A stretch of DNA of 54,861 bases from Anaerolineae bacterium (GTDB lineage Bacteria; Chloroflexota; Anaerolineae; CG2-30-64-16). The stretch covers positions 1 to 54,861 of the forward strand of contig JAPKMS010000112.1 in the NCBI GenBank assembly GCA_026645775.1, read 5' to 3'. The notes under the pieces are model-generated. The model searched no databases and had not been told where the DNA came from. It saw only the letters and a program-made list of their open reading frames with translations. How positions within the stretch are numbered: position 1 is the first letter of the stretch; every line of letters starts with the position of its first letter. Both the position numbers and the translations under genes were made by a program. Below are positions 10,938 through 37,625 of the stretch, piece after piece.

Positions 10938-11047
10938 GCCTTCGTTTTCTCATGTTGAGCATATCCGCGGCATGAGGTTCGTTGCGGCGAATCACCAGCG
11001 ATCGCGAAGCATCCTTTAGAAATCATCTCGTAGTGGAGCGCCTGATC

Positions 11048-12046
11048 ATGGAACACATCGAATTCCATTGGAATGCGTTGATCGTCTTCTATCTTTTCAC
11101 AGCCGGCGTGAGCGCGGGCGCTTTCTTTGTCTCCGGCCTGGCCACCTACCTGGGCGGCGAGCGTTACAAACGAATCAGTCGCATCGGCGCGCTGATCGCG
11201 CCCTGGCCCGTGATGCTGGGCCTGCTTTCGCTTGTCTTCGACCTGACCAAGCCGTTCGAGTTCTGGTGGCTCTTCCTGACGGTCCAGGCTACATCGCCAA
11301 TGTCCATCGGCGCCTGGCTGCTGACGCTTTTCACCGTGGTGGCGCTCGTCTACTTCCTGCTGTGGTTCCCGCGACCCTGGCGCGATTTGCTGAAGGCGCC
11401 CCAGCGGCGGAGTGCCCCGAACACGCCGAGGATCTGGAAGCCCCTGGACCAGGCGCAGATCAACAAAGCCCGGCGCATCGTGGCGGCCATCGGCGCGCCC
11501 ATCTCGATCGGGGTGGGCATGTACACCGGTGTGCTGCTCGGGGCGGTGCCGGCTCGTCCCCTCTGGAACACGCCCATGGTGGCCCAGCTCTTCCTGGTCT
11601 CTGCCATGAGCACGGGAGCCGCGGCGGTGCTGCTCATCGCCGCCCTGCTCCGCCCGAAGGCCGGCCATGATTATCTGCACGAGGAGCGCCGCTTCCTGGT
11701 CAGCCTGGATATCATGTTGATCCTGGTCGAGATCTTCATCGTGACGCCCTTCTTCCTGCACCAGGCCTTGAGCACCTGGAGCTCGTCCAGCAGCCTGCGC
11801 ATCCTCTTGGGCGGGCCGTATACCCTGCTTTTCTGGCTGGGCTTTGTTCTGCTCGGCCTGCTGGCCCCGTTGGCGATCGAGGGCTTCGAGCTCTTCCCGG
11901 TCGTCTGGCGGGAACAGGCGGTGCGGTACAGCCGGCTGTGGGCGGGCCTGAGCGCTACCTTGGTGCTGGTCGGCGGCGCTGTGCTGCGCTATGTGATCGT
12001 GTTTGCCGGCCAGGTGTCGCACTTCTTGCCGCTGTACACGCGTTAG
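11048..12046 (+). CDS. NrfD/PsrC-type polytopic membrane quinol-interacting subunit
   Basis: About 8 hydrophobic helices. Start taken at MEHIEFHWNALIVFYLFTAGVSAG (typical NrfD N-terminus), with GGAG upstream. Confidence 0.85.
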   Translation: MEHIEFHWNALIVFYLFTAGVSAGAFFVSGLATYLGGERYKRISRIGALIAPWPVMLGLLSLVFDLTKPFEFWWLFLTVQATSPMSIGAWLLTLFTVVALVYFLLWFPRPWRDLLKAPQRRSAPNTPRIWKPLDQAQINKARRIVAAIGAPISIGVGMYTGVLLGAVPARPLWNTPMVAQLFLVSAMSTGAAAVLLIAALLRPKAGHDYLHEERRFLVSLDIMLILVEIFIVTPFFLHQALSTWSSSSSLRILLGGPYTLLFWLGFVLLGLLAPLAIEGFELFPVVWREQAVRYSRLWAGLSATLVLVGGAVLRYVIVFAGQVSHFLPLYTR

Positions 12047-12183
12047 CTATCAGCCAATGCTGCGCAGGTGTTGTGGTAGCGACTTCAGTTGCTATGGCGG
12101 TGCAAGAACGACTGACGGCGTCATGACCGTCTTGTGTCTCAGCGTTGGCCAGCGACGGGCACACGAGAGGCTTTGAGAATTCT

Positions 12184-12831
12184 ATGCACGATCTACGACT
12201 CTATCTTGAAGAAGCAAGCAAACGGCATGATCACCTCTGCCCGCGCCTCATTCTGGGGGTGCGGATGGCAATCGCCGGTGCGCTGGCCCTGGGCCTGGAG
12301 ATTCCCAGGCAGGACAAGACACTCCTGGTCATCGCGGAGACGGACGGCTGTTTTCTGGACGGGCTGGAGGTGACGGCGGGAGTATCACCCGGCCACCGTA
12401 CCCTTCGCATCGAGGATTACGGCAAAGTCGCGGCCACGTTCGTCAGCGTGGAGACCGGTGGGGCTCTTCGCCTGGCCCCGCGGCCCGATGTGCGGGCGCG
12501 CGCCCGCGACTACGCCCCCAGCGGGACCGGTCACTACTTCGCTCAACTCATCGGCTACCAGATGATGCCGGATGACGAGTTGTTTTCCATGACGCCGGTC
12601 GTCCTGAGCACGCCGGTAGTTGATCTGATCAGCCGCGCCGGGGTGCGGACGACGTGCGCGCTCTGTGGGGAAGAGATCATCAACGAGCGCGAGATCATGG
12701 CCGACGGCGTGGCGTACTGCCGCTCCTGTTCGGGGCGGGCATATTACCAGTCGACCGCGCTCGCGCAGTGGATGATCGGTGGCGTGCCGTGGGTGGAGGC
12801 TGCGGACGCAGTCAAAACAGGACGCAGATGA
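12184..12831 (+). CDS. FmdE-family protein with a C-terminal zinc ribbon
   Basis: HDHLCPRLILGVRMA...ETDGCFLDGLEV is the FmdE fold signature. CALCGEEI...YCRSC is the Zn ribbon. The start is uncertain (TTG at 12145 or ATG at 12184). Confidence 0.75.
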   Translation: MHDLRLYLEEASKRHDHLCPRLILGVRMAIAGALALGLEIPRQDKTLLVIAETDGCFLDGLEVTAGVSPGHRTLRIEDYGKVAATFVSVETGGALRLAPRPDVRARARDYAPSGTGHYFAQLIGYQMMPDDELFSMTPVVLSTPVVDLISRAGVRTTCALCGEEIINEREIMADGVAYCRSCSGRAYYQSTALAQWMIGGVPWVEAADAVKTGRR

Positions 12832-12909
12832 CCGCGGACAAACGCGGATAGGGAAACAAACAGCGCTGGTCCGCATCCTATTCGTCACCGATGTGAGGCA
12901 AGGAGACGC

Positions 12910-13578
12910 ATGAAATCCATCACACGACCTGGCATCGTCCTGGCAGCCATTGCCTTGAGCGTCCTGCTGCTTTCTGCCTGCGCCGAGCGCTTGGCCCCCG
13001 CGCCCGTGGTTCCGACTGCTACGCAACTGGCGGCAGCCGCCACTGACCTGGCGCCGGCGGACCTGACGCGTGGGCAGCAGGTTTATCTCGACAAACAGTG
13101 TGTCGCCTGCCACAACGCGTCCGGAACCGGCGGCATCGGCGCCTCGCTGGCGGGCACGACTTTGTCGTTTGACGAGTTCCTGCATATTCTGCGTAACGCA
13201 ATTCCGCCGAAGCCCGCGTTCAACGAGGCCGAGCTGCCGGCGCAAGACGCTTATGATGTCTATAGCTGGCTTAGGAGCTTGAAGCCGACCGGAGCCTCGC
13301 CCACTGCGCCGCCCCCGCAACTTGACGCCGGCAAAGTGTTGGGCATGACGCTCTGGGTGCAGGGTGGCTGCGATGCCTGCCACGGCGCGTTCGCCCAAGG
13401 CAGCCCGAAAGGGCCGACGTTGGCCGGTTTCAGCGATACCTTCGAGCAGGAACTCGCGCGGATGCGCAAGGGTGTCGACACTATCCCCGGTCATACCGAT
13501 TCGGTCATGGACGACGCGACGTTTCAGCGGCTCTACCAATGGCTGAAAGGGGGCGCGAATCCCGAGAGTGGCTGCTGA
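12910..13578 (+). CDS. Dihaem c-type cytochrome lipoprotein (paralogue of 3949-4644)
   Basis: Lipobox VLLLSAC. Motifs CVACH and CDACH. Colinear similarity to the 3949 gene (LSFDEFLH..RNA..PKPAF.EA.LP.QD.YD.Y.W...L; CHGAFAQG...GP.LAG). Confidence 0.8.
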   Translation: MKSITRPGIVLAAIALSVLLLSACAERLAPAPVVPTATQLAAAATDLAPADLTRGQQVYLDKQCVACHNASGTGGIGASLAGTTLSFDEFLHILRNAIPPKPAFNEAELPAQDAYDVYSWLRSLKPTGASPTAPPPQLDAGKVLGMTLWVQGGCDACHGAFAQGSPKGPTLAGFSDTFEQELARMRKGVDTIPGHTDSVMDDATFQRLYQWLKGGANPESGC

Positions 13579-14125
13579 ACCTCAAGTCTACGAACTCCTG
13601 GCCCAGGCTTTGCTCTACCCGGACGCTGCGTTTGCTGCGAAGATGCAGGCACGCTTCCAGGCGCTGCCGGTCGTTCCACCTTGGGCTCATCTGATGACAG
13701 ATGCCCTGTGCAGCGATGCGTTGGAGGATCTGCAATCGGAGCACGTCCGGCTGTTCGTGAACACCTACGGCGGCGCGCCTTGCCTGCCGTATGAGTCGGT
13801 CTACACCGAGGGGCGGGTGCTGGGCGAGGCCGCGCAGGAAGTTATGGCTCTCTACGCCCATTGGGGCGTGCAGGAAACGAGCGAGATGCCCGATCATGCG
13901 GCGGTGGAGCTGGCTTTCGCGGCTCAACTGGCGCGTTTGCAGTCCCTCCTGGCGGCAGAGGAAGAACGAGCGCTCGCACGGCAGGCGTTGGAGAAGCTTG
14001 AGCGCACCCACTTGCGCGTCTGGCTGCCCAGGCTGGCAGACGGCTTGCTGACGGCTGGTCTGCCATTTTACCGGGCCTTGGGCGTCGCGCTGCAGACCGT
14101 CTTCGGCGGCAAAGAGGCTGCATGA
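13568..14125 (+). CDS. TorD/NarJ/DmsD-family redox enzyme maturation chaperone
   Basis: 185 aa. LFVNTYGGAPCLPYESVY and MPDHAAVELAFAAQL are typical of the family. GTG start overlaps the cytochrome gene's stop. Confidence 0.65.
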   Translation: MAAEPQVYELLAQALLYPDAAFAAKMQARFQALPVVPPWAHLMTDALCSDALEDLQSEHVRLFVNTYGGAPCLPYESVYTEGRVLGEAAQEVMALYAHWGVQETSEMPDHAAVELAFAAQLARLQSLLAAEEERALARQALEKLERTHLRVWLPRLADGLLTAGLPFYRALGVALQTVFGGKEAA

Positions 14126-14598
14126 CTGTCTTTCATGGAAGCGCCAGGCCGGCGGTGGGTCGACGCCAGTTCCTCACCTGGCTGACCCGCGGCTCCCTGA
14201 TGGTCGTCTCCGCGCTCGCGGTTGGCCAGATCGCGCGTTATTTTGCTTTTGAGCCCACTGCTGACGTCCCGACAGCGATCCCGATTGGCCCGCCGGATCG
14301 CTACGCGCCTGCGACGCTCACGTATCTCGGCCCGGCACGCGCCTATATTGGACGCGACAGCGCCGGCCTTTATGCGCTCGACGCTGTCTGCACCCATTTG
14401 GGCTGCCTGGTGGAACAGCGCACCGACGGCGGATTCGCCTGTCCTTGCCATGATAGCCATTTTGGCGCCGATGGCCAGGTGGAGAGCGGCCCGGCCAGCA
14501 AGGCGCTGCACCATCTGGCCCTCGAACTGGACCAGGATGGGCAGGCCATAGTGGATCGCGGCCGGTCGGTGGCCCCGGAGACGCGCCTGGCAATATGA
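14122..14598 (+). CDS. Rieske 2Fe-2S protein, Tat signal
   Basis: RRQFLTW twin-arginine signal. CTHLGC...CPCHDSHF is the Rieske motif. ATGA overlap with the chaperone gene. Confidence 0.85.
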   Translation: MTVFHGSARPAVGRRQFLTWLTRGSLMVVSALAVGQIARYFAFEPTADVPTAIPIGPPDRYAPATLTYLGPARAYIGRDSAGLYALDAVCTHLGCLVEQRTDGGFACPCHDSHFGADGQVESGPASKALHHLALELDQDGQAIVDRGRSVAPETRLAI

Positions 14599-14603
14599 TG
14601 CAG

Positions 14604-14651
14604 GCCGGTGATTAAAATCACCGGCTGGTAAAAAGTACGTTGAAACGTACT
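14604..14651 (+). repeat. Two adjacent perfect hairpins in the AT-rich Rieske-cytochrome b spacer
   Basis: GCCGGTGAT-TAAA-ATCACCGGC (14604-14625) and AGTACGTT-GA-AACGTACT (14634-14651). Confidence 0.5.
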
Positions 14652-14714
14652 GTGCGGCGTTGGGCAAACTTGTGCTAACAAGGTTCGCGACGCCGGGTTC
14701 AACCGCAGGCGGCC

Positions 14715-15752
14715 TTGCACAGCGCCATGACTACAAAGCGTCCCAACTTCTTCTACCACTTGCACCCCCCGACCTTGCCGGCGCGTGAAAGCCGTTTCGG
14801 CTACACCTTTGGGTTGGGCGGCATCTCGCTGCTGCTCTTCCTGGTGCTCGGCGTCACTGGCGTTCTGGAGATGTTTCTCTACGTGCCCACCCCCGCCGGC
14901 GCCGCTGAGTCGGTCCGCCAGATCACCTACCTCGCCCCATTCGGTTGGCTGCTGCGGAATATGCACTATTGGGGCGGACAGATGATGGTGGGGGCGGTGG
15001 CCTTGCACATGGCGCGCGTCGTGCTGAGCGGGGGCTACAAAGGGCGCCGCTTCAACTGGCTCATCGGGATGGCGTTGCTGGTGCTCACGCTGCTGCTCGA
15101 TTTCACCGGCTACGTGCTGCGTTGGGATCAAGACACCGCCATCGCGTTGGTGACGGGTACAAACCTGATCAACGCGGTCCCTGGCATCGGCCCGATGCTC
15201 TACCGCCTGGTGATCGGCGGCGCGGCGGTGGGCCAGGCAACCTTGCTGCGGTTTTACGCCTGGCACGTGCTCGGGCTGGTATCCGTGGCGGCCGTGCTCA
15301 TCGTTTGGCACAGCTTCCGCGTGCGCCGCGATGGCGGCATCTCCCATCGAGAGCCGGCGCCTGGCCCGGCGTCTCGCGTGGGCCGCGAGCAGTTGGTCAA
15401 GACCGAGTTGGTTGCAGCTCTGCTGACGCTGGTCGTGCTGGTCGGGCTCAGCGTGGCCGTGGACGCACCTTTGGGGCCCGCCGCCGATCTCACCGTGCTG
15501 GCCGCGGAGCTCCGTGCGCCCTGGTTTTTCCTGTGGATCCAGGAGCTGCTGCGGAGCGCACCGCCCTTCCTAGCCGGCGTGCTGGCGCCGTTGGCCGTGC
15601 TGCTGCTGTTGAGCGTCCTGCCCTACGCGCTCGACCGGGAACAGGCCGGGGTCGGCGAATGGTTCAACCGGCCGGGACGTGCGGCGCAAGGCGTCTTCCT
15701 GGCGGTCCTCATCACGGTCATCGCCTTAACGGCCAGGGGTCTGCTGCGATGA
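14715..15752 (+). CDS. Cytochrome b (bc/b6f-type, fused with a subunit IV-like C-terminus)
   Basis: 345 aa. RNMHYWGGQMMVGAVALHMARV and FYAWHVLGL carry the haem-ligand His residues. Multiple TM helices. Confidence 0.85.
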   Translation: MHSAMTTKRPNFFYHLHPPTLPARESRFGYTFGLGGISLLLFLVLGVTGVLEMFLYVPTPAGAAESVRQITYLAPFGWLLRNMHYWGGQMMVGAVALHMARVVLSGGYKGRRFNWLIGMALLVLTLLLDFTGYVLRWDQDTAIALVTGTNLINAVPGIGPMLYRLVIGGAAVGQATLLRFYAWHVLGLVSVAAVLIVWHSFRVRRDGGISHREPAPGPASRVGREQLVKTELVAALLTLVVLVGLSVAVDAPLGPAADLTVLAAELRAPWFFLWIQELLRSAPPFLAGVLAPLAVLLLLSVLPYALDREQAGVGEWFNRPGRAAQGVFLAVLITVIALTARGLLR

Positions 15753-17065
15753 GCGCGCACGATCGGGCAGTGGCTGCTGCGGGAATTGTCCTGGCCCTGG
15801 TTCTCCTCGCCGCCTGGGGCCGACAGGCCGGCCAGCCGCCGGTCGTACAGATCATTCCGACCCTGACCAACCGGCCAGAGCTCTGCCTGACCTGCCACGA
15901 TGGCATCGAAGAAATCAGCCCCTCGCATCCGGTCGCGGCTTTCGGCTGCACCACCTGTCACGGCGGCGATGGGCTGGCCTTGGACGCTGATCTCGCCCAC
16001 ACCGGGCTGTACGGCGGCCGCAATCCAGCCGACCTGGCCGTGGCCGATGTCGCGTGCGGCGGCGCCGACTGTCACAACGGCGATCCGGCTGCGTCCCGCG
16101 ATCACATCCAGCGGGTCAACAGCAGCATCCAGGCCACTTATGCCGGCGCCATTGCCCAGGTGCGTTTTGCCTTCGGCGCGCAGCCCGATCAGGCGGCACA
16201 CATGGGCGTCCACGCGGTGCGGGATGATCGGGTCGTGTCTCCGGACGCCGTCGCATCGTTGACGGCCTTCACAGCCGACGCAGCGGATCCTGGGTCTGTG
16301 CAGCAGTTTGCTGCGCGCTGCCTCACCTGTCACCTGTGGGCCCAACCGGTCGCCAAACCGACCTTTTATCGCGCCACCGGCTGCGCGGCCTGTCACGCGC
16401 TTTATGATGCGGACGGCCTGTACAAGGGCAGCGATCCCACCCTCTCGCACACGGAGCCCGGTCACGCCAGCGCGCATCGCTTGACCACAGCCATGCCCTA
16501 CACGCAGTGCAATCACTGCCATAACCGCGGCAACTACAATCTACCGCGGATGACCTTCGTCGAGCGCACCGATCTAGCGGCCTTGCCGGCGGCAACGGCC
16601 GCGTCCGCGCAGCGCCTGGCCGAGTACTACCAGCCCATCGGGCAGTTCACGCGTTGCGAATGGGAGTTGGATTGCGTCGACTGCCACACCACGCGGGAAG
16701 CGATGGGTGACGGCGATATCTACGGCAGCCAGGCCGACGCGCAGTATACCCAGTGTCGCACCTGCCACGGGACGCTGACGGAGGCGCCCATACTGGCCAC
16801 GATCACCGATCCGAACGATGTCGTGCTGCGCCAGGCCCAGGTCAACGGCAAGTATCCCCTGCAGGTTGGCGATCAGGTGGTGGTGACGGAGCGCGGGGAG
16901 AAGTTAGGTCAGGTTCGCTGGGATGGGGATCACCTGGTGCAGACGATGAAAGTGACGGGCCAAACCTACAACGTCCCGCTGGTCAAAGGCACGGGCTGTA
17001 CACAAAAGCCTGACGAGCAAGCCTCGCACTATTGCCACGCGTGCCACGATCACCGGCAGTCGTAG
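15749..17065 (+). CDS. Multihaem c-type cytochrome (8 CxxCH plus one CX4CH)
   Basis: Start at the ATG overlapping the cytochrome b stop (ATGA). Signal anchor present. Motifs CLTCH, CTTCH, CGGADCH, CLTCH, CAACH, CNHCH, CVDCH, CRTCH, CHACH. The 706-aa ORF in the track is an upstream over-extension. Confidence 0.85.
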   Translation: MSAHDRAVAAAGIVLALVLLAAWGRQAGQPPVVQIIPTLTNRPELCLTCHDGIEEISPSHPVAAFGCTTCHGGDGLALDADLAHTGLYGGRNPADLAVADVACGGADCHNGDPAASRDHIQRVNSSIQATYAGAIAQVRFAFGAQPDQAAHMGVHAVRDDRVVSPDAVASLTAFTADAADPGSVQQFAARCLTCHLWAQPVAKPTFYRATGCAACHALYDADGLYKGSDPTLSHTEPGHASAHRLTTAMPYTQCNHCHNRGNYNLPRMTFVERTDLAALPAATAASAQRLAEYYQPIGQFTRCEWELDCVDCHTTREAMGDGDIYGSQADAQYTQCRTCHGTLTEAPILATITDPNDVVLRQAQVNGKYPLQVGDQVVVTERGEKLGQVRWDGDHLVQTMKVTGQTYNVPLVKGTGCTQKPDEQASHYCHACHDHRQS

Positions 17066-17066
17066 A

Positions 17067-17192
17067 TCCGTTCCGCAAAGATGCTTCTTCATCGAGTACT
17101 TCAACCGCACCACGGCCACGCCCTTCAAGTGGACCCACAAGGCAGGGCCCTGGGAGCTTAATCCAAGGGTGAATTCAGCCGAGCTGTACTAG
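17067..17192 (+). pseudogene. IS630-family transposase C-terminal remnant
   Basis: Frame 3 reads ...CFFIEYFNRTTATPFKWTHKAGPWELNP...*. The FI.YFN....PFKWT block is the typical C-terminal end of IS630/Tc1-like transposases. Only ~40 codons remain and there is no upstream ORF. Confidence 0.5.
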
Positions 17193-18628
17193 TCGCCACT
17201 GCTGTGCGGCTGGCTCGGCTCCAACAGGTAACCTTGACCATATTTCCGCACAATGGAGTAGGGCGCCTGGGCTTTGCTCAGCTTAGTGCGGAGTCCCATC
17301 GCGGCGATCTCGAGGGCGTGTTTCGCCCCGCCTGCCTCTTTCGCTTTCCAGATGGCGCGCTCCAATTCGGCGTCTGGCACGAGCTGGCCGAGCTGCTGGT
17401 ACAGCGCCAGGAACAATTGTGCGCTCTTGGTGCGAGGTCCCAGATCCATCTCGGCCAGCAGACTGTGCGGCGCGGCCAGCACAGCCTGGGAGGCGGCCGG
17501 CGTCGGGATCAACTCAGCCGCGCGGCGGTTGACGAAAGCCGCAAACAAGGGCGAGAAGAACTCCAAACGGTCCGGCACGGCCGGATCTTCCGCTATGATC
17601 GCCTCATCCTGCAGCGTACGGGCGAACGCGCGGCCGGCGACCTGGCTCCAGTCGGTGTGCGGATCGCGATACACCCGCAGGAACTCGCGCAGATCGCCCT
17701 CCCAGTGATTCCAGAGATACTGGAAGATGACCTCCAAGGCGCTATTCACCGTCTGCCAGATGAAGTTTCGGGTCAGCGGTTGGACGCGGGTGGCGCGCAG
17801 GTGGTCGTAGGCGGTGGCCGCCGCGCGCATCAGCACATACGGGTGCCGGCCAACGAGTTCGAGCAGCAATAGCTGGTCGCTCCGGCTGAATTGGAGCTCG
17901 GCATCCGGTGCAACCAGTGCCTCTGCCGCGGTCTCGGGTTCCAACAACCGCACGTCCAGGCGCTCCAGCCGATACAGCAGCGGCGACCCGGCCAGATCGG
18001 GGAAGATGTCGACAAGCGGCCTCCGCGTGGCCAATACCAGCGATGCATACCCGGTCAATTCCGTCAGGTATTGGGTGGACTCGGTATCTGCCAGCAGGTG
18101 GGCTTCGTCCACATGATCCAGGCCGAGGATCAGCCGCAGGCCGTGCGCTTGCGTCGCCCGGGCCAGCGCGCTGAGACGTGCGCGCGTGCCGACCCGATCG
18201 AGCTGGGCCGCAGTCTTATCCAACTGAATTTCGTGGGCCAGGACGCGCAAGTCAAAATCGGACCGGCGTTCGAGCGCAGTCAGGACCGCCTCAGTCAGGT
18301 CGATGAAGGGATTGTCGGGCGACGCGCCCGCCAGGTCCTGGTAGATCGGTACCAGGCAGCTCGGGGCCAGGCCTGGCCCGATTGCGGCGCTGAATGGGGC
18401 GCGCTGCAGGCACCCTCCCGCCGTGCCCAGGTCCCGCAGGAGGGTGGTCTTGCCGATCCGCCGCGGGCCGACCAGGTTCAGGCTGGCCGGATCGCCCCCG
18501 GTGAGACGGCGGGTCATAGTCGTGAGGAGCTCCTGGCGCCCATACGCGCGTGGCGGCACGCAGCCGGGCCGCGGGGTGAAGGGGTTTTGCCAGTGACCGG
18601 TTTCGCGCGTTGACGTAACGTCAGGCAT
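17189..18628 (-). CDS. STAND/AAA-type P-loop ATPase with a C-terminal OmpR/PhoB-type winged-helix DNA-binding domain
   Basis: Start at MPDVTST, whose ATG overlaps the upstream gene's stop by 8 nt. Walker A GPRRIGKTTLL, Walker B-like LRLILGLDHVDE. C-terminal LFLALYQQLGQLVPDAELERAIW...LEIAAMGLRTKL...IVRKYGQGYLL matches the Trans_reg_C pattern. Confidence 0.75.
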   Translation of the reverse strand: MPDVTSTRETGHWQNPFTPRPGCVPPRAYGRQELLTTMTRRLTGGDPASLNLVGPRRIGKTTLLRDLGTAGGCLQRAPFSAAIGPGLAPSCLVPIYQDLAGASPDNPFIDLTEAVLTALERRSDFDLRVLAHEIQLDKTAAQLDRVGTRARLSALARATQAHGLRLILGLDHVDEAHLLADTESTQYLTELTGYASLVLATRRPLVDIFPDLAGSPLLYRLERLDVRLLEPETAAEALVAPDAELQFSRSDQLLLLELVGRHPYVLMRAAATAYDHLRATRVQPLTRNFIWQTVNSALEVIFQYLWNHWEGDLREFLRVYRDPHTDWSQVAGRAFARTLQDEAIIAEDPAVPDRLEFFSPLFAAFVNRRAAELIPTPAASQAVLAAPHSLLAEMDLGPRTKSAQLFLALYQQLGQLVPDAELERAIWKAKEAGGAKHALEIAAMGLRTKLSKAQAPYSIVRKYGQGYLLEPSQPHSSGD

Positions 18629-21600
18629 GTGTAAAGTCCTCTCCTGTGATTCGAGCCGGTTGATACGCAGCGGCCCAGGCCGCGAAAAGCGGGATCTGCA
18701 CCCGGAACTCCGGTGTGCCGGCAACGGTCACGCCGGCAGCCAGCACATCGAGCCGCACCAGGGCCGCCAAGAGCTCACGCGCGGCGTCCGCGTCCCGTTG
18801 GCCGGGCGGTAGGAGCGCCGGCTCGGGCGACCATGCGTCAGTGCGGGCTGATCCCAGTCGGTGCAAGAGCCGGCAGGCGCCGGCCGTGACCGGCGCGCCG
18901 GTCATGTGTCTGAAATAGAGATCGGCGTGGCGATCCGTGGCAATGCTGAGTTTGGCTGCCTGTTCGGCATCGGGCAGCTCAAACACGCGGTGATCCGTGC
19001 GCTTGAGCTGTTCGACCGCCTGATAGCCGACCACTTTGAGCAGGTAGGGGTTCCGCGCCGTCACCGTCACGACGTACTCCAAGGCTTCGGCGCGCCAGCT
19101 CAGGCCCACCGCCTCGGCCTCCGTGGCCAACAGGGCCTGCGCCGCCGTCGAATCCAGGGGGCCCAATCGCAGCAGTTGGGCGATCTCCAACAGCCCGGCG
19201 CCGCGGCTGGTGAGGGAATGCATGCTTGTGAGCGCGGCCGCCTGCACCACAAGCACAAACGCCACATCCAGCTCTCCGCCCATCAGGTAGCGCAGGTTGT
19301 CGAAGATGCGCGGATCGAGCCGGCCTTGCCGCACCTGGTCGTCGAGCGAGCTGAACTCGTCCATGAGCACGACCAGCCGGATGTCGCGCCGGCTGGTCAG
19401 GGCCGCGGCCGTGCGTCGACAAAACTGGGCGAACACGCCGACCGGATCCTCTGCCAATTGCTGCCGCTCCTGCGTTGTGAGGTAAGTCAGCCCTCCGCCC
19501 AAGAGATCGGGGATCTGGCTGAGGCGTTCGGAGCTGGCTCGGATCACCTCGCCGAGCAGACCGGCCAGGCCCGGGCCGCGGTCCGGCTGGCAATCCACGT
19601 ACACGCCCACCCAGGTATCGCCGATCCCGCTCCGCTCAAGATGTCTGAGGAGTGATGTCTTGCCGATGCGCCATGGTCCATACACCACCAAGGGCCCCAC
19701 CGGCTCGGGTCGCGCAATAAAGGCCTTAACCGCATCCAACTCCTCCGCGCGGCCGAGAAAGTCTCCCAGGCGATAGGCTGGCTGGTTGAAGCGATAGGGG
19801 TGCGCGGCGGCCAGATGCCGCCGCAGCTCACGCGCCTCTTGTGGCGTCATGGCCAACGGCCGTGTTGCGACCTCTTGAATGCCCGGCACGGCCTTGATGG
19901 CAGCGACCAGGGCGCTGGCGTCGTCACCGCCCCGCACCTCAGCCAGGACCTGGATGTGCGCCGCGTCGTCAACCAGGCGCTCGGCCAGCACTCGGTGCAG
20001 GGCGTGGCCTTGGGCGTGGAATGGCTCCAGCACCTCGGTCAAGAGGCGCTTGCGATCCGCGCCCAGCACGAGAAATTCGTACTGGCTCTCGTCTGCAGGC
20101 GGGCGCCAGGTCAACTCGGTCGTCCGTGCATCGTGCGGCAACCAGCGGCAGTCGGTCGCGTGGAGAGTGATCCGTTCATGCGGCGTGTTGGGCTGGTAGA
20201 AGTGGCCGGCGATCTCCGTGTCCACCGCGGGCTTGCAGCATTGGGCCACGCGCACGCGCTCAGCGCGCAGGCCCAGGGGCCGGCCGTCGGGATAACCGAC
20301 ACGCTGCGCGACCTCCTGCGTCGCGATGCGGAGCGCCACAGCCTCCGGTGCGGGCCGGCCGCCGGCGACCTGTTGATACAGGGCCTCGCTGTCACCGCAC
20401 TGGTACCAGTGTGCAGCCTCATCGAAGTAGGCGCTGAGGCGCACCTTGCTCAACGTGATCCCCAAGCGTTTGCACTGCTGTTCAACGGCCTGCTCCAAGA
20501 GCAGCTTGCCGCGGTCGGCGCCCTGCTCGCGGTAGGCCAGCGCCTTCTGGATACGGGCGGTCGCCGCCGGGGTCTGCACGGTCTGCAGCCACTCCCGCCG
20601 CAGGCGGGACGGCAACCGCGGGTCAAACCGGATGTTGATGATATCGGCGTTGGCCAGGTGAAAATCGACCGGCACCTCCACACCGTTGACCTGGGCGCCG
20701 GCATAGAATTGTCCCTGCTCCGAATGCAGTTGAAACGCAAAGTCGACTGGTGTGCTCTGGCTGGGCAGGGTGTGCAACTCGCCCAGCGGCGTGAAAACGT
20801 AGGTCGGCTGGGCATACGCACCCGGTTCTGCAGTGCGTAGGATGCTCAGCTCGCGCTCTGTGCGATGCCACCAGGCTTGCCGGAGCTGTTCTGGGGCTGC
20901 TGATCCCTGTTCCCATTCCGCCGCGCGGCCGCGGCGATTGCTCTGCTGTGCGGCCTCCGTGCAGATGAAGCAGTCGACCGTTGGCCGTTCACCGCGCGTG
21001 GTTTCGATGGCCACGGTCGTGTGGATCATGCGATAGGCATTGAATTTGGGTGCGCCGAGATAGTCGCGCAAGGTGCCTGTTACGTGCCGCCCCAGGCGGT
21101 GCAGGCAGCCCAGAATCAGGTAACAGGTGGCCTCATCGGCCGCAGTTACGTCGACCGCGATCCGGCCGGCCAGCGCGCGGGCAGCCTGATCGCGGTCGAG
21201 ATCCGGCCCCAGGTGCGGATAGGCGCCGCTCTGCTCGAAGACTCGCGCCGCGCGCACCGGGCGGATGGTCACTGTTACCGCGGCGCCGTGAGCGGGGAGG
21301 TTGGCGCGCAGGGTGGCCTCAACCAACCCCAGAATCTCCTCGCGCCGCGCGTCGTGCTGTCGGATCCAACCGGCAATCTGTTCGGCGCGGGCCGGCTCCA
21401 GCAGACGGAGCAGCGCCTCGGCTGCTTGGCGCTGCTCATCCCCCATCCCAAAGCGCTCCAGCATTGGTAGGCAAGCCACGCGCAGGTGTTCGGCCTGGGT
21501 CAGTTTGTCTGCCGACTGCTGTTCGCCCAGGTCTTCGAGTTGCGCCAGCATGTGTCCAAGGGCCACGAAGGTGACCGGCTCATCCGTGAATGAGGCGATG

Positions 21601-21968
21601 AATAGTTTTTGCAAATGCTGAAAAGCCGGGCGCGCCAATTCAGGCCGGCCGCGCGGCTGCGGGTATAGGGTCCGGTTGAGGCTGTGGAACCGGTGCACCA
21701 GGTCCGCCACCCTCGGTGTTACCCGGGCTGTGGATAGGGCATCAGTGGCCGGATCGGCGCTGGTGGGCAGCGCGACCAAGCGGGCCGCGGCCTGCCATTC
21801 CGCTGGACAATGCCAGGCCGCCAGCCGGTCGGCGGCCCGCGCCGCTATCTGGATGGTGCGCTGGGTCGCGCCATCCAGCGGGACGCCGGCTTCGGCAACC
21901 AGGCGCTCGGCAGCGGCCAGCACTTCGGCAGCCGATTGTGCGGTGTCCGGGTATTGTTCAGGGTGCAT
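18621..21968 (-). CDS. Long RelA/SpoT homologue (pseudo-HD, degenerate synthetase, TGS, Zn-finger/CC, ACT/RRM) fused to a C-terminal STAND-type ATPase
   Basis: Synthetase-like DYLGAPKFNAYRMIHTTV...VDCFICT...RAAEW. TGS YVFTPLGELHTLPSQSTPVDFAFQLHSEQG..GAQVNGVEVPVDF. AQCCKPAVDTEIAGH...ITLHATDC is the CC domain. An ACT-like block follows, then Walker A GPWRIGKTSLL and Walker B LVVLMDEFS. Start at MHPEQ, with GAGGAG 8 nt upstream. Confidence 0.75.
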   Translation of the reverse strand: MHPEQYPDTAQSAAEVLAAAERLVAEAGVPLDGATQRTIQIAARAADRLAAWHCPAEWQAAARLVALPTSADPATDALSTARVTPRVADLVHRFHSLNRTLYPQPRGRPELARPAFQHLQKLFIASFTDEPVTFVALGHMLAQLEDLGEQQSADKLTQAEHLRVACLPMLERFGMGDEQRQAAEALLRLLEPARAEQIAGWIRQHDARREEILGLVEATLRANLPAHGAAVTVTIRPVRAARVFEQSGAYPHLGPDLDRDQAARALAGRIAVDVTAADEATCYLILGCLHRLGRHVTGTLRDYLGAPKFNAYRMIHTTVAIETTRGERPTVDCFICTEAAQQSNRRGRAAEWEQGSAAPEQLRQAWWHRTERELSILRTAEPGAYAQPTYVFTPLGELHTLPSQSTPVDFAFQLHSEQGQFYAGAQVNGVEVPVDFHLANADIINIRFDPRLPSRLRREWLQTVQTPAATARIQKALAYREQGADRGKLLLEQAVEQQCKRLGITLSKVRLSAYFDEAAHWYQCGDSEALYQQVAGGRPAPEAVALRIATQEVAQRVGYPDGRPLGLRAERVRVAQCCKPAVDTEIAGHFYQPNTPHERITLHATDCRWLPHDARTTELTWRPPADESQYEFLVLGADRKRLLTEVLEPFHAQGHALHRVLAERLVDDAAHIQVLAEVRGGDDASALVAAIKAVPGIQEVATRPLAMTPQEARELRRHLAAAHPYRFNQPAYRLGDFLGRAEELDAVKAFIARPEPVGPLVVYGPWRIGKTSLLRHLERSGIGDTWVGVYVDCQPDRGPGLAGLLGEVIRASSERLSQIPDLLGGGLTYLTTQERQQLAEDPVGVFAQFCRRTAAALTSRRDIRLVVLMDEFSSLDDQVRQGRLDPRIFDNLRYLMGGELDVAFVLVVQAAALTSMHSLTSRGAGLLEIAQLLRLGPLDSTAAQALLATEAEAVGLSWRAEALEYVVTVTARNPYLLKVVGYQAVEQLKRTDHRVFELPDAEQAAKLSIATDRHADLYFRHMTGAPVTAGACRLLHRLGSARTDAWSPEPALLPPGQRDADAARELLAALVRLDVLAAGVTVAGTPEFRVQIPLFAAWAAAYQPARITGEDFTHA

Positions 21969-21999
21969 GGCCCGGCTCCTCGGGTGGCTTTTGACTCCT

Positions 22000-22049
22000 A
22001 TCATACCCGATTGGTTGCGCGGGGGCAAATCGCGCACAAGACTCTTGTG
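22000..22049 (-). promoter_or_regulatory. Candidate promoter plus perfect 7-1-7 palindrome upstream of the RSH-STAND operon
   Basis: On the minus strand: TTGCCC (22023-22028), 17 nt, TATGAT (22000-22005). Palindrome CACAAGA-C-TCTTGTG at 22035-22049 lies just upstream of the -35. Confidence 0.35.
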
Positions 22050-22151: not shown

Positions 22152-22182
22152 ACATATTCCGCCCATGCCGTAGGCGGAATAT
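22152..22182 (+). promoter_or_regulatory. 11-bp perfect stem-loop in the 5' region of the Nudix-like gene
   Basis: CATATTCCGCC, 9-nt loop, GGCGGAATATG. It sits inside a strikingly AT-rich spacer (about 22055-22150). Confidence 0.35.
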
Positions 22183-22223
22183 GGAGTCAGCATCAGGTAC
22201 AGGTGCCCCATCCGGAGGACTAT

Positions 22224-22904
22224 ATGAATACAATGTCCACTCTCGCCAGTCTCTCACCCATCGTCTCGTCAGCAGTCTTTCACGGCGCAGGTTCATTGGT
22301 TCCCCGCGATGGCCGCTTTCTATGCGGCATCCGTCCGCTGCGTCGGGAACACGACGATCTGATCGCCCAGGTGACAGCCATCGGCGGCGGTCTGGAGGCG
22401 TACGACGCCTCGTTCATGGCCGGCGCGTTGCGTGAAAGCCTTGAGGAAATAAACTGTCCGCTTTGCTTTCAGTCCTGCGCCGAGACCCTGTTTGTTCATG
22501 GCCCTGCGCAGGTGCAGTGGCAGCGGCTGGCGGACCCGATGGGGCCCGCCGCCGTTGTTTTTCGGCACTGGCACACCCCTCCGCGGCGGCCCTGGCACGT
22601 GCCGCACGATGGTTGGCAGTGCCTGGTGCTCTATCAGGCGGCGCTGGCGGGCACGCCCTGCCCTTCGCAAGAGCTGCCTGGGCTGATCTGGCTTTGGCCG
22701 GCACAGATCGTCGCCCTTGCTCATGTCGACGTGCCCTTGCAGACGCTGCTGGATCAGGGCGCGCTGCTCCTCGAAGATCCTCAGCTCCCCCTGGCGCGCA
22801 ACGCCTGCGCCCGGTTAACTGATTCGCAGGAAGCGTTAGTGTTGGGTCTGGGGTCTAAGGCGCTGGCTTTTTATACGTCGTTGGCGGCCGGCCGTCTTGC
22901 GTGA
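22224..22904 (+). CDS. Hypothetical protein with a degenerate Nudix-box-like segment
   Basis: IGGGLEAYDASFMAGALRESLEEINC resembles Gx5Ex7REUxEExGU, but only the RExxEE core is retained. GGAGGA lies 5 nt upstream of ATG 22224. Confidence 0.4.
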   Translation: MNTMSTLASLSPIVSSAVFHGAGSLVPRDGRFLCGIRPLRREHDDLIAQVTAIGGGLEAYDASFMAGALRESLEEINCPLCFQSCAETLFVHGPAQVQWQRLADPMGPAAVVFRHWHTPPRRPWHVPHDGWQCLVLYQAALAGTPCPSQELPGLIWLWPAQIVALAHVDVPLQTLLDQGALLLEDPQLPLARNACARLTDSQEALVLGLGSKALAFYTSLAAGRLA

Positions 22905-27942: not shown

Positions 27943-30900
27943 TCAGGACTCGTCTTCGATCAGGTTTTGATGTTGCAGTCCGTTGTCACTCCACGGGATG
28001 CGCGGCGACATCGCCTGGCCGCCCACGAAGAGCAGCACGTTCTTGCCGAGGCTGCCGCAGCGAGCGACGGCCGTCGAATCGCTCGCCGCCACAGTGACTT
28101 CGTAGACAAGGCCGGTGGTCTCTGCGCGGGTGCGACCCCGGCCGCACACCGCACCGTCTACTAACGCCAGCACCGACATGCCGGCCGCCGGCGCAAACTT
28201 GGGGCTGGTGTTGACCAGGCCGTAAAGCGTCAGCGGCGGCCGGAGGGGCTGCTTGCGGGTCCAGGCGGTGGGGGTGGTCGGCGTCGCCCCCAGGCTTTCT
28301 CCGCCCGGGAATGCGCCGCGCAGATGGAGCGTGATCGGTTCGGTCGCCGTGATGTGGATCCAGTACCCGTGCGAGAACTCCAGGGTGGCCAGGTCGTTGC
28401 GGGGGCCAGGAACGGGCGCGTACAACTTCCAGGAGTCTGCCGCGTCCGCCGCGTCGAAGCCGTAGACGGCGGAGTAGCTGCCGGCGATGGAGGCGAGCAC
28501 CGCACTGATCGGCCTGGCTGCTGCTGGTACGCCAGCCGTCTGCACGGGGTAGCCGAGCAGGTTCCAGCCGGGCTGGAGGGTGATATCGATGTGCGAGAAC
28601 AACGCGTAGAGCCCCGGACCCACCAGCCGCGCCGAAATCAGATTGTGCTCAAGATCGAGTTTTTGCCCGTCAAGGATGCGCCAGGTTTTTGCGTTGGCTT
28701 CCCAGAAATACAGGTGGATGAAAGCCTCCTCGCCGGCCGGGACGTCGGACTGCAGATACTCGAAGGCGATGGAGCTCCGGCCGAAATCCGTGATCGGCTC
28801 CGAGGCCGCCAGCCAGTAGGCTCGGCCGATGGGGGTCGCATAGGAGATCGGATCCTGCAGCCAGGTGGCGGGCTGCAGGGTGAACGACCACTCCCGATCT
28901 GCGCCGAACTGCTCCTCGTCGGGATAGACCATCACCTGACCATCCACCGAGGCCGCCGGCGCACGCAAGCCGCGCATGCGAACGCGCAGGCCGCGCATAC
29001 GCACGCTGCGCGGGTTGTTCGATGCGCCGATCGCACCGATGCGCACGGGGTTGCCTCCCACGGCAAACTCGGCTACCGCCTGGCGCGGGTTTGTACCCAG
29101 GCCCAGTCCTTGAGTCTCGCCGACCAAGACATAACCTTCCAGCACCGGGGCGGCGGAAGTGAGGCTTGCACCATAGACGCAGCCATCCTGCAGACAGCCC
29201 TGGTGTGTCAGGGTGATGGGCGCAGGCGCAGGTCCATCCGTGGGATAGAGCCGGGCGGTCAAGGTCAGCGCTGCGTTGGCGGCGTTGTTCGGCAGCGTGA
29301 CGCTGATCTGCAGGGTTCGCGTCGATTCCGGCGAGATGATGATCTGTGGCTGCCAGCCCGCAGGTTGTTGCATTTCCAATTGGTCATCGCCGGGCGTGAT
29401 GGCCTCGCAACCGACCTGGCCATTGATCAGATCGTACACGCAGAGCCGATCGTTGGGCCGGGCGCCCCGCGCGGTCACCTGATCCCCGGTGGGCTGACCC
29501 AGGTCGATTAAGGTCGGATAGGGCATGCCCTGAAACAGATAAGCGCGTGCCTGGCTGCTGGTCTGATCCCCTGGGGTCAGGCCCTTGAGGTAGAAGATCG
29601 GCACCTCCAGCGGCTGGGTGGAGGTGATCGCTTCGGCCGGACACTCGAAAACAGGCGAGGCGGTTTCAGCCACCACTTGATTCGGCGCCGGCGGGCCAAA
29701 ACCCGTGGGCACGCAGAACCGGCGATAGACCGACTCCGGCGTCTCGCCCGGCTGACCGTAAAGCCGCGCTAACCAGGTCATTGGATCGGCGGCGGGGTCG
29801 ACAGCCTGGAACGAGATCTGCGTCACTGCCAGGGGCAGGAGACTGGGGCCGGACTCTGTCTCGGTGAAATTGCCGGTCGGTGCATTCAGCTCAGGATAGA
29901 AGCGTACGATCGTTTCCCAATCCGATCGCTGTGTGTTCAACTCCGATAAGGTCTTGACGCAATTTGATGTCTTCCAGCCCTGGTCCGGGTGGAACTCGCT
30001 GTAGGCGTTGCTGTACGGGTTGTTCATGGCGCCGGGGCAGTCGGTATCGTCGAGCGGAATCAGCAGGTCATCCGCCAGCGTGAGGTAGTCATCATCCAGG
30101 AACAGCAGGTAGTGCCCCAGCTCATGCGCCAGCGCAGCAGGCCAATCATCGCCCAGGTTGCCTGCGGTGGCGTCACCGTAGCGGTTCCAGGTCAAACCCA
30201 TCCGCACCTGCCCGGGCAGGTAGGAGATGACTCGCGGCGCAGTGCTGCCTGAGCCCTGCACCGACTGCACCGTCTCGCTGAAGACCTGTGAGACGATGCC
30301 GCCTTGGTCTGCGTTGGGGCGCAGGCGGTTGGACGCGTAGATGCGGATGTGGGCATTGTTCCAGGCGTTGGCGCCGTCGGGCAGGGAGCTGCGCCGGGCG
30401 TCGTGATAGATGCGCACGTTCCCCAAGGCGACCTGGCCGTTGGTCCAGTCGTACAGCAGCTCTGAGGTGCGGCGTAGATCGGCGCTAAGCCGTGCCGTGT
30501 ACTGCGCATCGTTGCTGGCGTTCCATTCCAGCGCCACGTTGAGATCGAACAACAGGAGCGGGTTCTCGCTGCTCACCGTCAGCGTTTGCACGCCGCCGGC
30601 CGTGACCGCGGAGGCCGCGAGCCCATTGACGGTGGGCCGGGCGCTGGTGTAGTGCAACGGGCTCAGCTTCAGCGCCAGGCCCCAGCCCAGCAATTGCACC
30701 GGCTCGGTGTCGGGCGTGGAGGCTTCCAGGATCCACGTTCCATCGGCCAGCGGGGCCGCGGCCGTGGTCAAAGGCGATGTGAAGATGCGCCGGGTCTCTA
30801 CACCGCAGGTTGGACGGGATTCGTCCGCACAGAGCGATGCACCGGCCGGCAAAGGGCCATCCAGCAATGAGGCCCGGTCGCCGTTCGGCGCCTCCAGGAC

Positions 30901-37100: not shown

Positions 37101-37625
37101 CTCCTGCTCGATATCCAAGGGCCGCAGATTCCCCGGGCTGGCAGTGACGGCCAGAACGCGCAGCGGCAGATTGGAAACCAGTGGCTTTGCCGGTTCAGTA
37201 AGTTCGATGTAGCGAACGATCGGTGTGGTAATGGAGAGGGCGAACGGGTCGGGGCGGTCGGGTGCACGCAAATACTCCCATGGCCAATCGGCCAGTTCGG
37301 GCGCTGTTTTGTCCAGCCGCAGGCGAATGCGCAGGCCCAGGCCGCGGCGCGTCGCCTCATCGAGGCTGCGGCGCAAGCTGGCGCCCACTTGATCAGCCAG
37401 CGCCACACGGTAGAGCGTTTCGCCGAGAAGCTCCGGGGATGGCAGGGGCAGGTCACCGGCCGAACGATCGAAATATCCGGGCAAGGCCGCGAGTTCAGCC
37501 TCTGTGAAGGGAGCGGCGAAGTCTCGCACCGCTTCGCTGACAGGTGAGTTGAGCACCCGGGCCTGGTAGCCACCGGGTGCGCGGGTGATCAGTAGATCGA
37601 AATTCTCGTAGGTGAGGATCGTCAT
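34101..37625 (-). CDS. CHAT protease domain, NB-ARC/STAND ATPase and TPR-repeat protein
   Basis: Start at MTILTYENF. CHAT dyad HFIGHG (His codon 36961-36963) and LNACEAG (Cys codon 36819-36821). Walker A GMAGVGKT (36375-36404), Walker B VLCLDDFH. About 500 aa of TPR-like helical repeats. Confidence 0.85.
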   Translation of the reverse strand: MTILTYENFDLLITRAPGGYQARVLNSPVSEAVRDFAAPFTEAELAALPGYFDRSAGDLPLPSPELLGETLYRVALADQVGASLRRSLDEATRRGLGLRIRLRLDKTAPELADWPWEYLRAPDRPDPFALSITTPIVRYIELTEPAKPLVSNLPLRVLAVTASPGNLRPLDIEQEWARLQRALKPLSERRLIVLERLESATLALLQARLRGDPVHLLHFIGHGFFDQAANVGGLVFEDGEGGSDIVTASALGLLLHDHEPLRLVFLNACEAGRGGRRDPFAGVAQRLVQGGVPAVAAMQFPITDRAALILSQEFYRALADGLPADAALSEARKAIKLAGDDPAWGTPVLFSRSGDNRLIAPETAKARPGALGAPPEPQQPPGVAGFVGREQELAHFAARLAADHVAVIAGMAGVGKTVLAARLARQVAADPSRIFWHQFHEGEGIETIIWRLAGMLYRHGQMALWELLEGARQSGGQPPPAEVLLDYLVQLLRGQDYVLCLDDFHYADGDPLVEKAVERLQILLSTGEVSLIVTSRRLPTVFRDQAFAPLGGLRMEDTRALLSTRSVALAPELLAELHHHTDGNAELLTLAVHALQRSRQPAQVIKRLADEDDIETYLLQEVDRGLTTDEKLVLGGVAALLGYPGTRSAIETTLASGNLKRTLRYLANRFLLREQEGRLDHEYLTHAIVQTFYYELLSRQERQALHRRAGEYYEQEEPDALKAALHYQRAGEAERAARLATADIWAAINQGQARLLRSLLLLLSQAQLAAAASIQVQLALGEVLAFLDETEAAQAAYQAALTALHAQAATPAARAGTARACLGLGTLLANRDPETALGWIERGLAAVDAEESDLTTALYNRKGTILLGQATYGEAIAALEQALALLPPAPSQLRGAVLNNLGSAWAWAGDSARGSQYTGEAVQVSTALHDTITLLSLISNIAIDKEIGGDWAGAGADYGEALRLAEQLGSLSEQARIHSLLGILRLHQGAESAAEEHLQRAVSLSRQIRSPEHLATTLPVLAQLHIGRHAWAPARAALAEAETLATEHGWDYILPETYASLALLALGQDQPDEALAQAEHSVVSAQQLAATVEEGKGLRVKGQALARLGRPHEAAAALEASLALLADADPYEAAQTQRCLAQLSESTGEHARSLGLLNQADAAFRQLGLEPPPR

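Follow-up and report, generated by a model that had tools for sequence, protein, structure and literature searches.

A catalytically degenerate long RelA/SpoT homologue fused to a STAND-like NTPase and paired with an NTPase–winged-helix protein in an Anaerolineae bacterium: a predicted two-protein signalling switch

Two overlapping genes on contig JAPKMS010000112.1 of an Anaerolineae bacterium (assembly GCA_026645775.1) were analysed by computation; the whole stretch of DNA analysed (54,861 nucleotides, G+C content 65%) is referred to as the window. Gene 1 (18621..21968, minus strand, 1115 residues from its ATG) encodes the scaffold of a long RelA/SpoT homologue (RSH) joined to a STAND-like nucleoside triphosphatase (NTPase), and gene 2 (17189..18628, minus strand, 479 residues) encodes a paralogous STAND-like NTPase with a C-terminal winged helix of the OmpR/PhoB type. 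Judged by its aligned motifs, the RSH part of gene 1 is a pseudoenzyme in which the hydrolase and synthetase motifs have been lost and the RSH scaffold has been retained. On balance, we favour the reading that this pseudo-Rel part is a sensor, the engagement of which would license nucleotide-dependent co-assembly with the gene 2 protein and thereby control transcription.

Domain layout and fold of gene 1

A complete colinear long-RSH layout followed by a P-loop NTPase had been proposed for gene 1 from the letters and translations alone (hereafter the sequence-only reading), and was recovered by Pfam, by TIGR00691, by alignment to RelA and by structure prediction. The Pfam matches above cut-off were TGS (E=1.3e-11), RelA_SpoT (4.9e-7) and nSTAND1 (2e-6), the last of these barely so (28.1 bits, cut-off 27.1); the matches to HD_4, ACT_4 and AAA_16 all lay under cut-off. 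The NCBIfam model TIGR00691 (spoT_relA) was matched over positions 91–684 of 687 (E=6.6e-50), and a phmmer comparison with E. coli RelA gave E=1.6e-30. The order of domains (HD, synthetase, TGS, helical, zinc finger, ACT/RRM) was the same by TIGR00691, by the RelA alignment and by Foldseek.

All features of the two genes lie on the minus strand. The pseudo-HD region (residues 1–170, 21459..21968), the family's least conserved domain, is followed by the pseudo-synthetase region (residues 171–360, 20889..21458), with degenerate motifs and a retained block on the guanine-nucleotide side, and by the TGS domain (residues 386–450, 20619..20813), the best-conserved domain of the family. The helical (AH) domain (residues 451–560, 20289..20618) was assigned from the RelA alignment and the AlphaFold2 (AF2) model, the zinc-finger/RIS domain (residues 570–625, 20094..20261) carries C578, P580, H603, C607 and W621, all nearly invariant in the family, and the ACT/RRM domain (residues 630–705, 19854..20081) was supported by Pfam, by alignment to canonical Rel and by the AF2 model. 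The STAND-like NTPase module (residues 722–1101, 18666..19805) starts with an NPY-like motif and ends in a terminal winged helix; within it lie Walker A (GPWRIGKTS, 19653-19679), Walker B (DEF within LVVLMDEF, 19353-19376) and a GxP-like motif (RNPYLL, 19038-19055). The motifs quoted in the sequence-only reading (GPWRIGKTS, LVVLMDEF, GPRRIGKTT in gene 2, and CCKP...LHATDC) were all present.

The AF2 model of gene 1, built from a 67-sequence alignment, had a mean pLDDT of 88. When searched with Foldseek, residues ~1–700 matched ribosome-bound RelA, full-length SpoT and Rel (E down to 8e-27), and the last ~400 residues matched archaeal ORC2, the PAB2304 Walker ATPase, CED-4, Apaf-1 and Avs3. In the AF2 models of both genes the P-loop core is followed by a helical bundle (GxP-type motif region) and a terminal winged helix.

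Loss of catalytic motifs and retention of the reading domains

For motif comparison, gene 1 was aligned to canonical Rel proteins and to E. coli RelA. In the alignment to canonical Rel, the hydrolase signatures GxPYxxHP, LLHDxxEDT and KLADRLHNxR were absent from gene 1, and the HD residues H53, H77-D78, E81-D82 and D144/N148 were all missing. On the synthetase side, GRPKHxxSxxxKM was replaced by IRPVRAARVFEQS (the equivalent of RPKxxxSxxxK being RPVRAARVFEQ), YDLxGxRV by AGRIAVDV, with Gly268 as the equivalent of Rel D264, and VExQxRTxxMHxxAExGxAAHW by VDCFICTEAAQQSNRRGRAAEW (the equivalent of ExQxRT being DCFICT). The acceptor-nucleotide block DYxxxPKxNxYxxxHT was the sole synthetase block to survive. 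The exchange D264G is the standard synthesis-dead mutation of Rel (PMC7797070). The description of gene 1 as a "full-length RelA/SpoT homologue" in the sequence-only reading therefore does not hold in a functional sense, all catalytic motifs being degenerate and the D264 equivalent being glycine as in that mutant.

The same comparison was extended to a family alignment of 67 rows, consisting of gene 1 and 66 relatives. An intact set of synthetase motifs was found in none of the 67 full-length members; the column of the catalytic glutamate held E in 21 rows, and the D264 column held D in 16. Conservation scores by domain were 0.505 for TGS, 0.39 for the pseudo-synthetase core, 0.37 each for the NTPase core and ACT, 0.36 for the zinc finger and 0.27 for the pseudo-HD domain. 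H415 of the TGS domain, which aligns with RelA H432, was retained in 53 of the 67 rows, and the zinc-finger residues C578, H603 and C607 were each retained in at least 65. In RelA, H432 (H420 in Rel) stacks against the 3'-CCA end of an uncharged tRNA in the A site, and activation is lost when this histidine is mutated (PMC7797070). Nearly invariant throughout the family were D409 and A411 of TGS, the zinc-finger residues C578, P580, H603 and C607, G764, G769, K770 and S772 of Walker A, and D870 and E871 of Walker B; P974 in the GxP-like motif was conserved at 97%.

The conservation of TGS, zinc finger and NTPase, set against the decay of the catalytic motifs, therefore indicates that selection has maintained the NTPase and the half that reads tRNA and ribosome, not catalysis. 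With the motifs in this state, a direct enzymatic function of gene 1 is unlikely.

Gene 2: a paralogous NTPase with a winged helix

The NTPase module of gene 2 (residues 10–372, 17513..18601) has an intact Walker A (GPRRIGKTT, 18443-18469), a variant Walker B (LDHVDE, 18104-18133) without an acidic residue right after the aspartate, and a GxP-type motif (GRHPYVL, 17831-17851). The winged helix-turn-helix (wHTH) at residues 400–471 (17216..17431) was recognised by Pfam Trans_reg_C (E=7e-7, 29.6 bits, cut-off 26.2) and in the AF2 model (pLDDT 80), in agreement with the OmpR-type DNA-binding domain assigned to gene 2 from its sequence at the outset; the AAA_16 and nSTAND6 matches lay under cut-off. 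Gene 2 relatives P0019 and P0020, and the partners in loci L018, L022 and L023, match nSTAND2 with up to 74 bits.

That the two P-loop modules are paralogous, as the sequence-only reading had held, was upheld by hhalign: the family of the gene 1 NTPase was aligned with that of gene 2 at a probability of 99.9% (E=3e-31, 341 columns), from a shared N-terminal NPF/NPY...[FY]GR motif through a shared C-terminal hPLF..W motif. By Foldseek, gene 2 matched PAB2304 (2QEN), ORC1, MalT and the plant helper NLRs NRC2/NRC4; for both NTPase modules the best fold matches were PAB2304 (2QEN) and archaeal ORC, with CED-4, Apaf-1, MalT, NRC and Avs3 next. Partners of RSH-type genes have a Walker B of the form D-[HRNS]-h-[DE], and the gene 1 Walker B is a canonical DEF. 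In the partner at L017 (9361-10899), Walker A has GR for GK. The idea that gene 2 is hydrolysis-dead was considered and rejected, because the D-x-h-D/E Walker B has NACHT-like spacing.

No Response_reg match was found in gene 2, the N-terminus of which is taken up by the NTPase module, and neither BTAD nor TPR was detected by Pfam. For want of a receiver domain, the protein does not count as an OmpR/PhoB response regulator; nor is it a member of the SARP/AfsR group, because it has no BTAD and its wHTH is C-terminal. The pair is no single-chain regulator of the MalT type either.

Gene pairing and modular relatives

The question of whether gene 2 always accompanies the fusion, raised with the sequence-only reading, was addressed with the related loci: a gene-2-type partner with Trans_reg_C stands directly 3' of the RSH–NTPase gene in 11 of 11 lineages with downstream DNA. 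These lineages are the window, P0002 (L001/L002), P0003 (L004, L006-L008), a lineage of 62% identity in L005, P0012 (L003, ~21% identity to gene 1), P0023 (L010), P0037 (L016, on a contig of 3.7 Mb), P0045 (L017), P0063 (two JGI contigs) and the metagenomic loci L021 and L024; P0047 and P0065, the contigs of which end at or near the gene, were left out of the count. The flanking genes are wholly different among the 11 paired lineages.

Aminoacyl-tRNA synthetase genes adjoin the pair in 2 of the 11 lineages, which is suggestive of a link to tRNA charging: a MetRS-like fragment of 303 residues lies just 3' of gene 2 at L006 (11677-12588; also at L007 and L008), and a class-I gene of the TrpRS/TyrRS type lies divergently upstream of the pair at L016 (4636-5670).

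Elsewhere the same NTPase clade occurs C-terminally behind TPR arrays, HEAT repeats or FG-GAP/WD40/PQQ beta-propellers, N-termini that are ligand-binding scaffolds and not enzymes. With the gene 1 module as query, 39 distant loci on metagenome contigs were examined; another profile search of metagenome contigs gave no match. Downstream sequence was available for 21 sensor–NTPase genes; in 17 of these cases a gene-2-type NTPase gene of 440–540 residues comes next on the same strand, often with overlapping stop and start, and for two further sensor–NTPase genes the partner lies upstream in divergent orientation. At the C-terminus, these partners carry either Trans_reg_C (L022 and L023, with a HEAT-type or unknown sensor) or a Swt1-like HEPN RNase (L025, L026, L031 and L035, with a TPR-type sensor–NTPase). 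No HEPN or GT4 output was found on the partners of RSH-type genes, the window and all RSH-type relatives having Trans_reg_C instead.

This swapping of sensors and outputs therefore points to a general design in which a variable sensor joined to an NTPase is followed by an NTPase joined to a variable output. Placed in that design by the modular swapping in its relatives, the pseudo-Rel part occupies the sensor slot and the winged helix the output slot.

The RSH–STAND family and its spread

A word-indexed search with gene 1 returned three close relatives and a distant one. In an exhaustive profile search with the ACT and NTPase part, 7493 proteins were matched at E<1e-3 and 3012 at E<1e-10 (representatives at 50% identity); among the 150 matches listed, 74 also matched the canonical-RSH profile in their N-terminal 600–750 residues, and 67 were full length. 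The RSH–STAND fusion thus constitutes a family of at least 74 clusters at 50% identity and is no one-off, as a search of genomes for the same fusion, proposed with the sequence-only reading, was meant to decide.

Members are deposited under names such as "TGS domain-containing protein [Chloroflexota bacterium]", "HD domain-containing protein [Anaerolineales bacterium]", "GTP pyrophosphokinase" and "(p)ppGpp synthase/HD superfamily hydrolase". The taxonomic spread was judged from five names, the few named members being Chloroflexota or Anaerolineales. When contigs of species-representative genomes were searched with patterns from the ACT region, a single match was obtained, in an uncultured Anaerolineales metagenome-assembled genome (MAG).

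Proposed mechanism and its weighing

In the proposed mechanism, gene 1 would be the sensor: having lost catalysis, it would keep the TGS domain that in RelA reads the 3'-CCA of uncharged A-site tRNA, the ribosome-docking helical, zinc-finger and RRM domains and the remnant of a guanine-nucleotide site, all joined to a STAND-like NTPase in which both Walker motifs are intact. Engagement of a ligand by the pseudo-Rel part would relieve autoinhibition of the gene 1 NTPase. Gene 1 would then form nucleotide-dependent hetero-oligomers with gene 2, the putative output protein with its paralogous NTPase, altered Walker B and OmpR-type winged helix; the winged helices would thereby be clustered or released, and transcription would change. 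No alarmone would be made by gene 1, and the pair probably senses the starvation alarmone rather than making it.

As ligand, uncharged tRNA or a stalled ribosome would be favoured, the main alternative being that the remnant acceptor site binds an alarmone or a guanine nucleotide; uncharged tRNA on the ribosome is the leading candidate because the TGS histidine, the zinc finger and the RRM domain are conserved. The suggestion of the sequence-only reading that these domains could couple translational status to an NTPase switch and a DNA-binding output was accordingly kept as the favoured, still conditional, account. A more specific version, in which the dead Rel on the ribosome would read uncharged A-site tRNA and drive NTP-dependent co-assembly with the NTPase–transcription factor as a (p)ppGpp-independent branch of the stringent response, is speculative and would need some luck to be right. 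On the basis of sequence, predicted structure and genomic context, we infer that gene 1 acts as a sensor, what its ligand is, that it hetero-oligomerises with gene 2, that gene 2 binds DNA and which genes may be its targets.

Several points weigh against this account. What is said of the family's function comes entirely from the three sources just named, and ribosome or tRNA binding is predicted from conserved residues. Classical STAND proteins hold an effector, not a sensor, at the N-terminus. A degenerate site would be compatible with unusual chemistry, and some relatives retain the HD metal ligands H..HD..D. The gene 2 Walker B, with its NACHT-like spacing, may still permit hydrolysis. No target operator was found: the intergenic blocks conserved among the related loci coincide with promoter hexamers and are explained by them, and a claim that the blocks are operators was therefore dropped.

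Comparison with known systems

No description of an RSH–STAND fusion was found in the literature, including Atkinson 2011, Jimmy 2020, Kaur 2020, the 2026 STAND census and Kaur et al. 2021; in the conflict-system paper of 2020 (Kaur 2020), RelA and TGS domains are rare effectors on vWA proteins only. Kaur et al. (eLife 2021; PMC8195603, Fig. 6C) predicted by computation an operon of two genes, each for a novel STAND NTPase, with a toroidal hetero-multimer as the expected assembly and with variable effectors, mostly GT4 or HEPN, borne by the partner with eroded NTP-binding motifs. The sequence-only reading had known of no RSH class with a STAND module; no earlier description of the fusion was found here either, but the two-gene STAND framework turned out to have been predicted already (PMC8195603).

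The window pair resembles this two-gene nSTAND2 system, itself known from computation alone, in that two adjoining genes are each built around a STAND module related to PF20702/PF20703, in the hetero-multimer predicted for both, in that the NTP motifs of the output-bearing partner are altered or eroded (the Walker B of gene 2, the GR of the L017 partner) and in that close relatives of the pair carry the HEPN output named in PMC8195603. It differs in its output, an OmpR-type winged helix in place of a GT4 glycosyltransferase or HEPN RNase, in its dead long-RSH sensor, which is not mentioned in PMC8195603, and in the intact Walker A of gene 2. By its sequence features the pair fits the framework of Kaur et al. 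2021, with types of sensor and output that are new to it.

With Rel, RelA and SpoT, gene 1 shares the colinear HD–SYNTH–TGS–helical–ZFD–RRM layout, the fold match, the TGS histidine and the zinc-finger ligands; unlike them, it has both catalytic centres dead and an additional NTPase module of 390 residues. RelA too has a dead HD domain, but its synthetase is active. MalT and the AfsR/SARP regulators likewise combine a P-loop STAND-type switch with a DNA-binding domain, which in AfsR and the SARPs is also an OmpR-type winged helix; in these proteins, however, sensor, switch and DNA-binding domain are parts of one polypeptide, whereas in the window sensor and output are split over two paralogous NTPases. 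The DNA-binding domain of MalT is a LuxR-type helix-turn-helix and the SARPs have an N-terminal wHTH with BTAD and TPR, in contrast to the C-terminal wHTH of gene 2, which is without BTAD.

Paired NLRs (NAIP–NLRC4 and the plant sensor/helper pairs) offer a parallel by analogy only: paralogous sensor and executor NTPases would be expected to co-oligomerise in both cases, and gene 2 folds like NRC2/NRC4, but the NTPases belong to another clade (nSTAND/ATPase_2-like in the window), the window sensor is N-terminal to its NTPase and the output is predicted to be transcriptional. In toxSAS, CapRel and Tas1, as in gene 1, an RSH-derived domain has been recruited outside the classical stringent response; those proteins are active single-domain synthetases or tRNA pyrophosphokinases that serve as toxins, whereas the window synthetase is dead and its regulatory C-terminal domains are conserved.

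Alternative explanations

A role in counter-invader defence is possible, if unlikely. The pseudo-Rel part would in this case detect a perturbation of translation or tRNA caused by infection, or a phage protein, and the winged helix would activate genes for defence or dormancy; this reading shares its core mechanism with the favoured one and differs from it in biological role alone. HEPN RNases, which are typical of abortive infection, occur in sister systems of this NTPase clade, and mobility and a counter-invader function were predicted for the two-gene class (PMC8195603). The pair is patchily distributed and its module stands in unrelated contexts, with an integrase and HicB adjoining it at L005 and PemK/RHH at the P0063 locus; in the window, it is flanked by an IS630-like remnant, and a conflict-type CHAT–STAND–TPR protein is also encoded there. 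Against this, the PADLOC models gave no match to gene 1 and a sub-threshold one only to gene 2 (PDC-S27, E=0.0025 over 40 residues), a tblastn search of plasmids and phages with the ACT and NTPase part as query gave no match, and the window neighbours are of a housekeeping kind (FeoAB, cytochromes, nuclease). The constancy of the output is also better suited to regulation than to abortive infection, all 11 RSH-type lineages having a transcription-factor output and none a toxic effector.

That the pair is a nucleotide sensor, in which the pseudo-catalytic half binds (p)ppGpp, GTP or GDP and the half from TGS to RRM is purely autoinhibitory, we consider rather improbable. No part of the N-terminal half is better conserved than the acceptor block (DYxxxPKxNGYxALHT), and the retention of HD metal ligands in some relatives, never together with the catalytic ED dyad, is the pattern expected of binding without turnover. 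The HD ligands are all lost in gene 1 itself, however, and the TGS domain with its CCA-stacking histidine and the zinc finger are more conserved than any N-terminal block, which is hard to square with mere autoinhibition.

It is most improbable that gene 1 is an active (p)ppGpp synthetase/hydrolase regulated by its C-terminal ATPase. The colinear RSH layout, the RelA_SpoT and HD_4 Pfam matches and the database name GTP pyrophosphokinase given to relatives would agree with such an enzyme, but the motifs of gene 1 are all degenerate, the complete set is found in none of the 67 relatives, the glycine at the D264 position is that of synthesis-dead Rel (PMC7797070), and the TIGR00691 score of 170 bits misses the cut-off of the curated long-RSH family (499).

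That the fusion is a frameshift, a misassembly or a decaying pseudogene, a concern already voiced with the sequence-only reading, can be dismissed: although in the metagenomic relative L024 (3327-6524) the gene is split into two adjoining open reading frames (ORFs; 448 + 617 residues), probably by a frameshift or sequencing error, at least 67 full-length proteins (16–87% identity), encoded in independent assemblies, have the layout without interruption, the AF2 model is confident across the RSH/NTPase junction, and the junction motif NPY...FxGR is conserved in the family.

Start sites and transcript signals

The coordinates of both genes and the 8-nt overlap between them, as given in the sequence-only reading, were verified from the six-frame ORF list and by direct reading. 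The list contains an ORF of 1138 residues at 18621-22037(-) and one of 511 residues at 17189-18724(-), which by choice of ATG are reduced to 1115 and 479 residues. On the minus strand the end of gene 1 (...TTT ACA CAT GCC TGA) runs over the start of gene 2 (ATG CCT GAC), so that the stop of the one and the start of the other share exactly the 8 nt ATGCCTGA (18621..18628); the purine-rich AGGAGAGGA precedes the gene 2 start. The ATG at 21968 is the likely start of gene 1, because orthologue N-termini share this methionine and because a promoter-like site (TTGCCC-17-TATGAT, 22000..22028, minus strand) and a GAGGAG just 5' of the ATG are both kept in four related loci.

Neighbourhood of the pair in the window

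Divergently from gene 1, a Nudix-like protein of 226 residues is encoded on the plus strand (22224..22904). Its REsLEE is retained, but the Nudix box is out of register in its first half, and no confident Pfam match was obtained; a profile search against PDB sequences gave no match. The gene accompanies the pair in the closest clade (L001, L005, L006) despite different flanks and is not present at distant RSH-type loci; possibly it is an accessory gene or a target, outside the core module. A universal three-gene module was considered and dropped, the upstream gene of the distant L003 (229 residues) being unrelated to the Nudix-like gene of the window. The Nudix-like gene has in its leader a hairpin (22153-22183, stem of 13 bp) that is terminator-like on the minus strand and lies just 5' of the gene 1 promoter; this hairpin is retained in L001 only, with changed stem bases.

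On the other side of the pair, a remnant of 40 codons on the plus strand (17070-17192, VPQRCFFIEYFNRTTATPFKWTHK...) converges on the gene 2 stop. It matched the C-termini of IS630-family transposases on cyanobacterial plasmids with E values of 2e-3 to 0.7; the "IS630 scar" of the sequence-only reading is plausible on this evidence, although the matches of so short a remnant are weak. Synteny with L001 (87% identity) breaks exactly at this point. Further on (10982-17065), 3' of gene 2, the window has a respiratory cluster (NrfD-like, FmdE-like, cytochrome c, cytochrome b and multihaem cytochrome) where L001 has a HisKA_7TM kinase/response-regulator pair, and the downstream context of the pair has therefore been rearranged recently.

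At a greater distance, a protein of 1203 residues (34101-37712, minus strand) combines a CHAT (caspase-like) protease with an AAA_16/NB-ARC STAND module and TPR; it is a conflict-type STAND of multicellular bacteria and unrelated to the NTPase clade of genes 1 and 2. It is encoded beside a giant FG-GAP ORF of 2040 residues (27943-34065, minus strand). Rfam and ARAGORN searches of the whole window found nothing and hence no link to a T-box or tRNA.

Implications

At least 74 clusters of this family exist under misleading labels of the GTP pyrophosphokinase type, by which inferences on the capacity for a stringent response in Chloroflexota MAGs would be distorted. The pair would offer a tractable paired STAND switch from bacteria, in which one NTPase bears the sensor and its paralogue bears the output. 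It would parallel NAIP–NLRC4 and the plant sensor/helper NLRs, and its readout would be transcription, which is easily assayed, and not cell death. The two-gene nSTAND class of 2021 is shown to swap its sensors (RSH, TPR, HEAT, beta-propeller) as well as its outputs (wHTH, HEPN). If the (p)ppGpp-independent branch proved true, the status of the ribosome would be wired directly to promoters, possibly those of neighbouring aminoacyl-tRNA synthetase or Nudix genes. The family would be the first long RSH lineage to discard the enzyme and keep the ribosome- and tRNA-reading apparatus as a sensor, and would thus represent a natural separation of the two halves of Rel.

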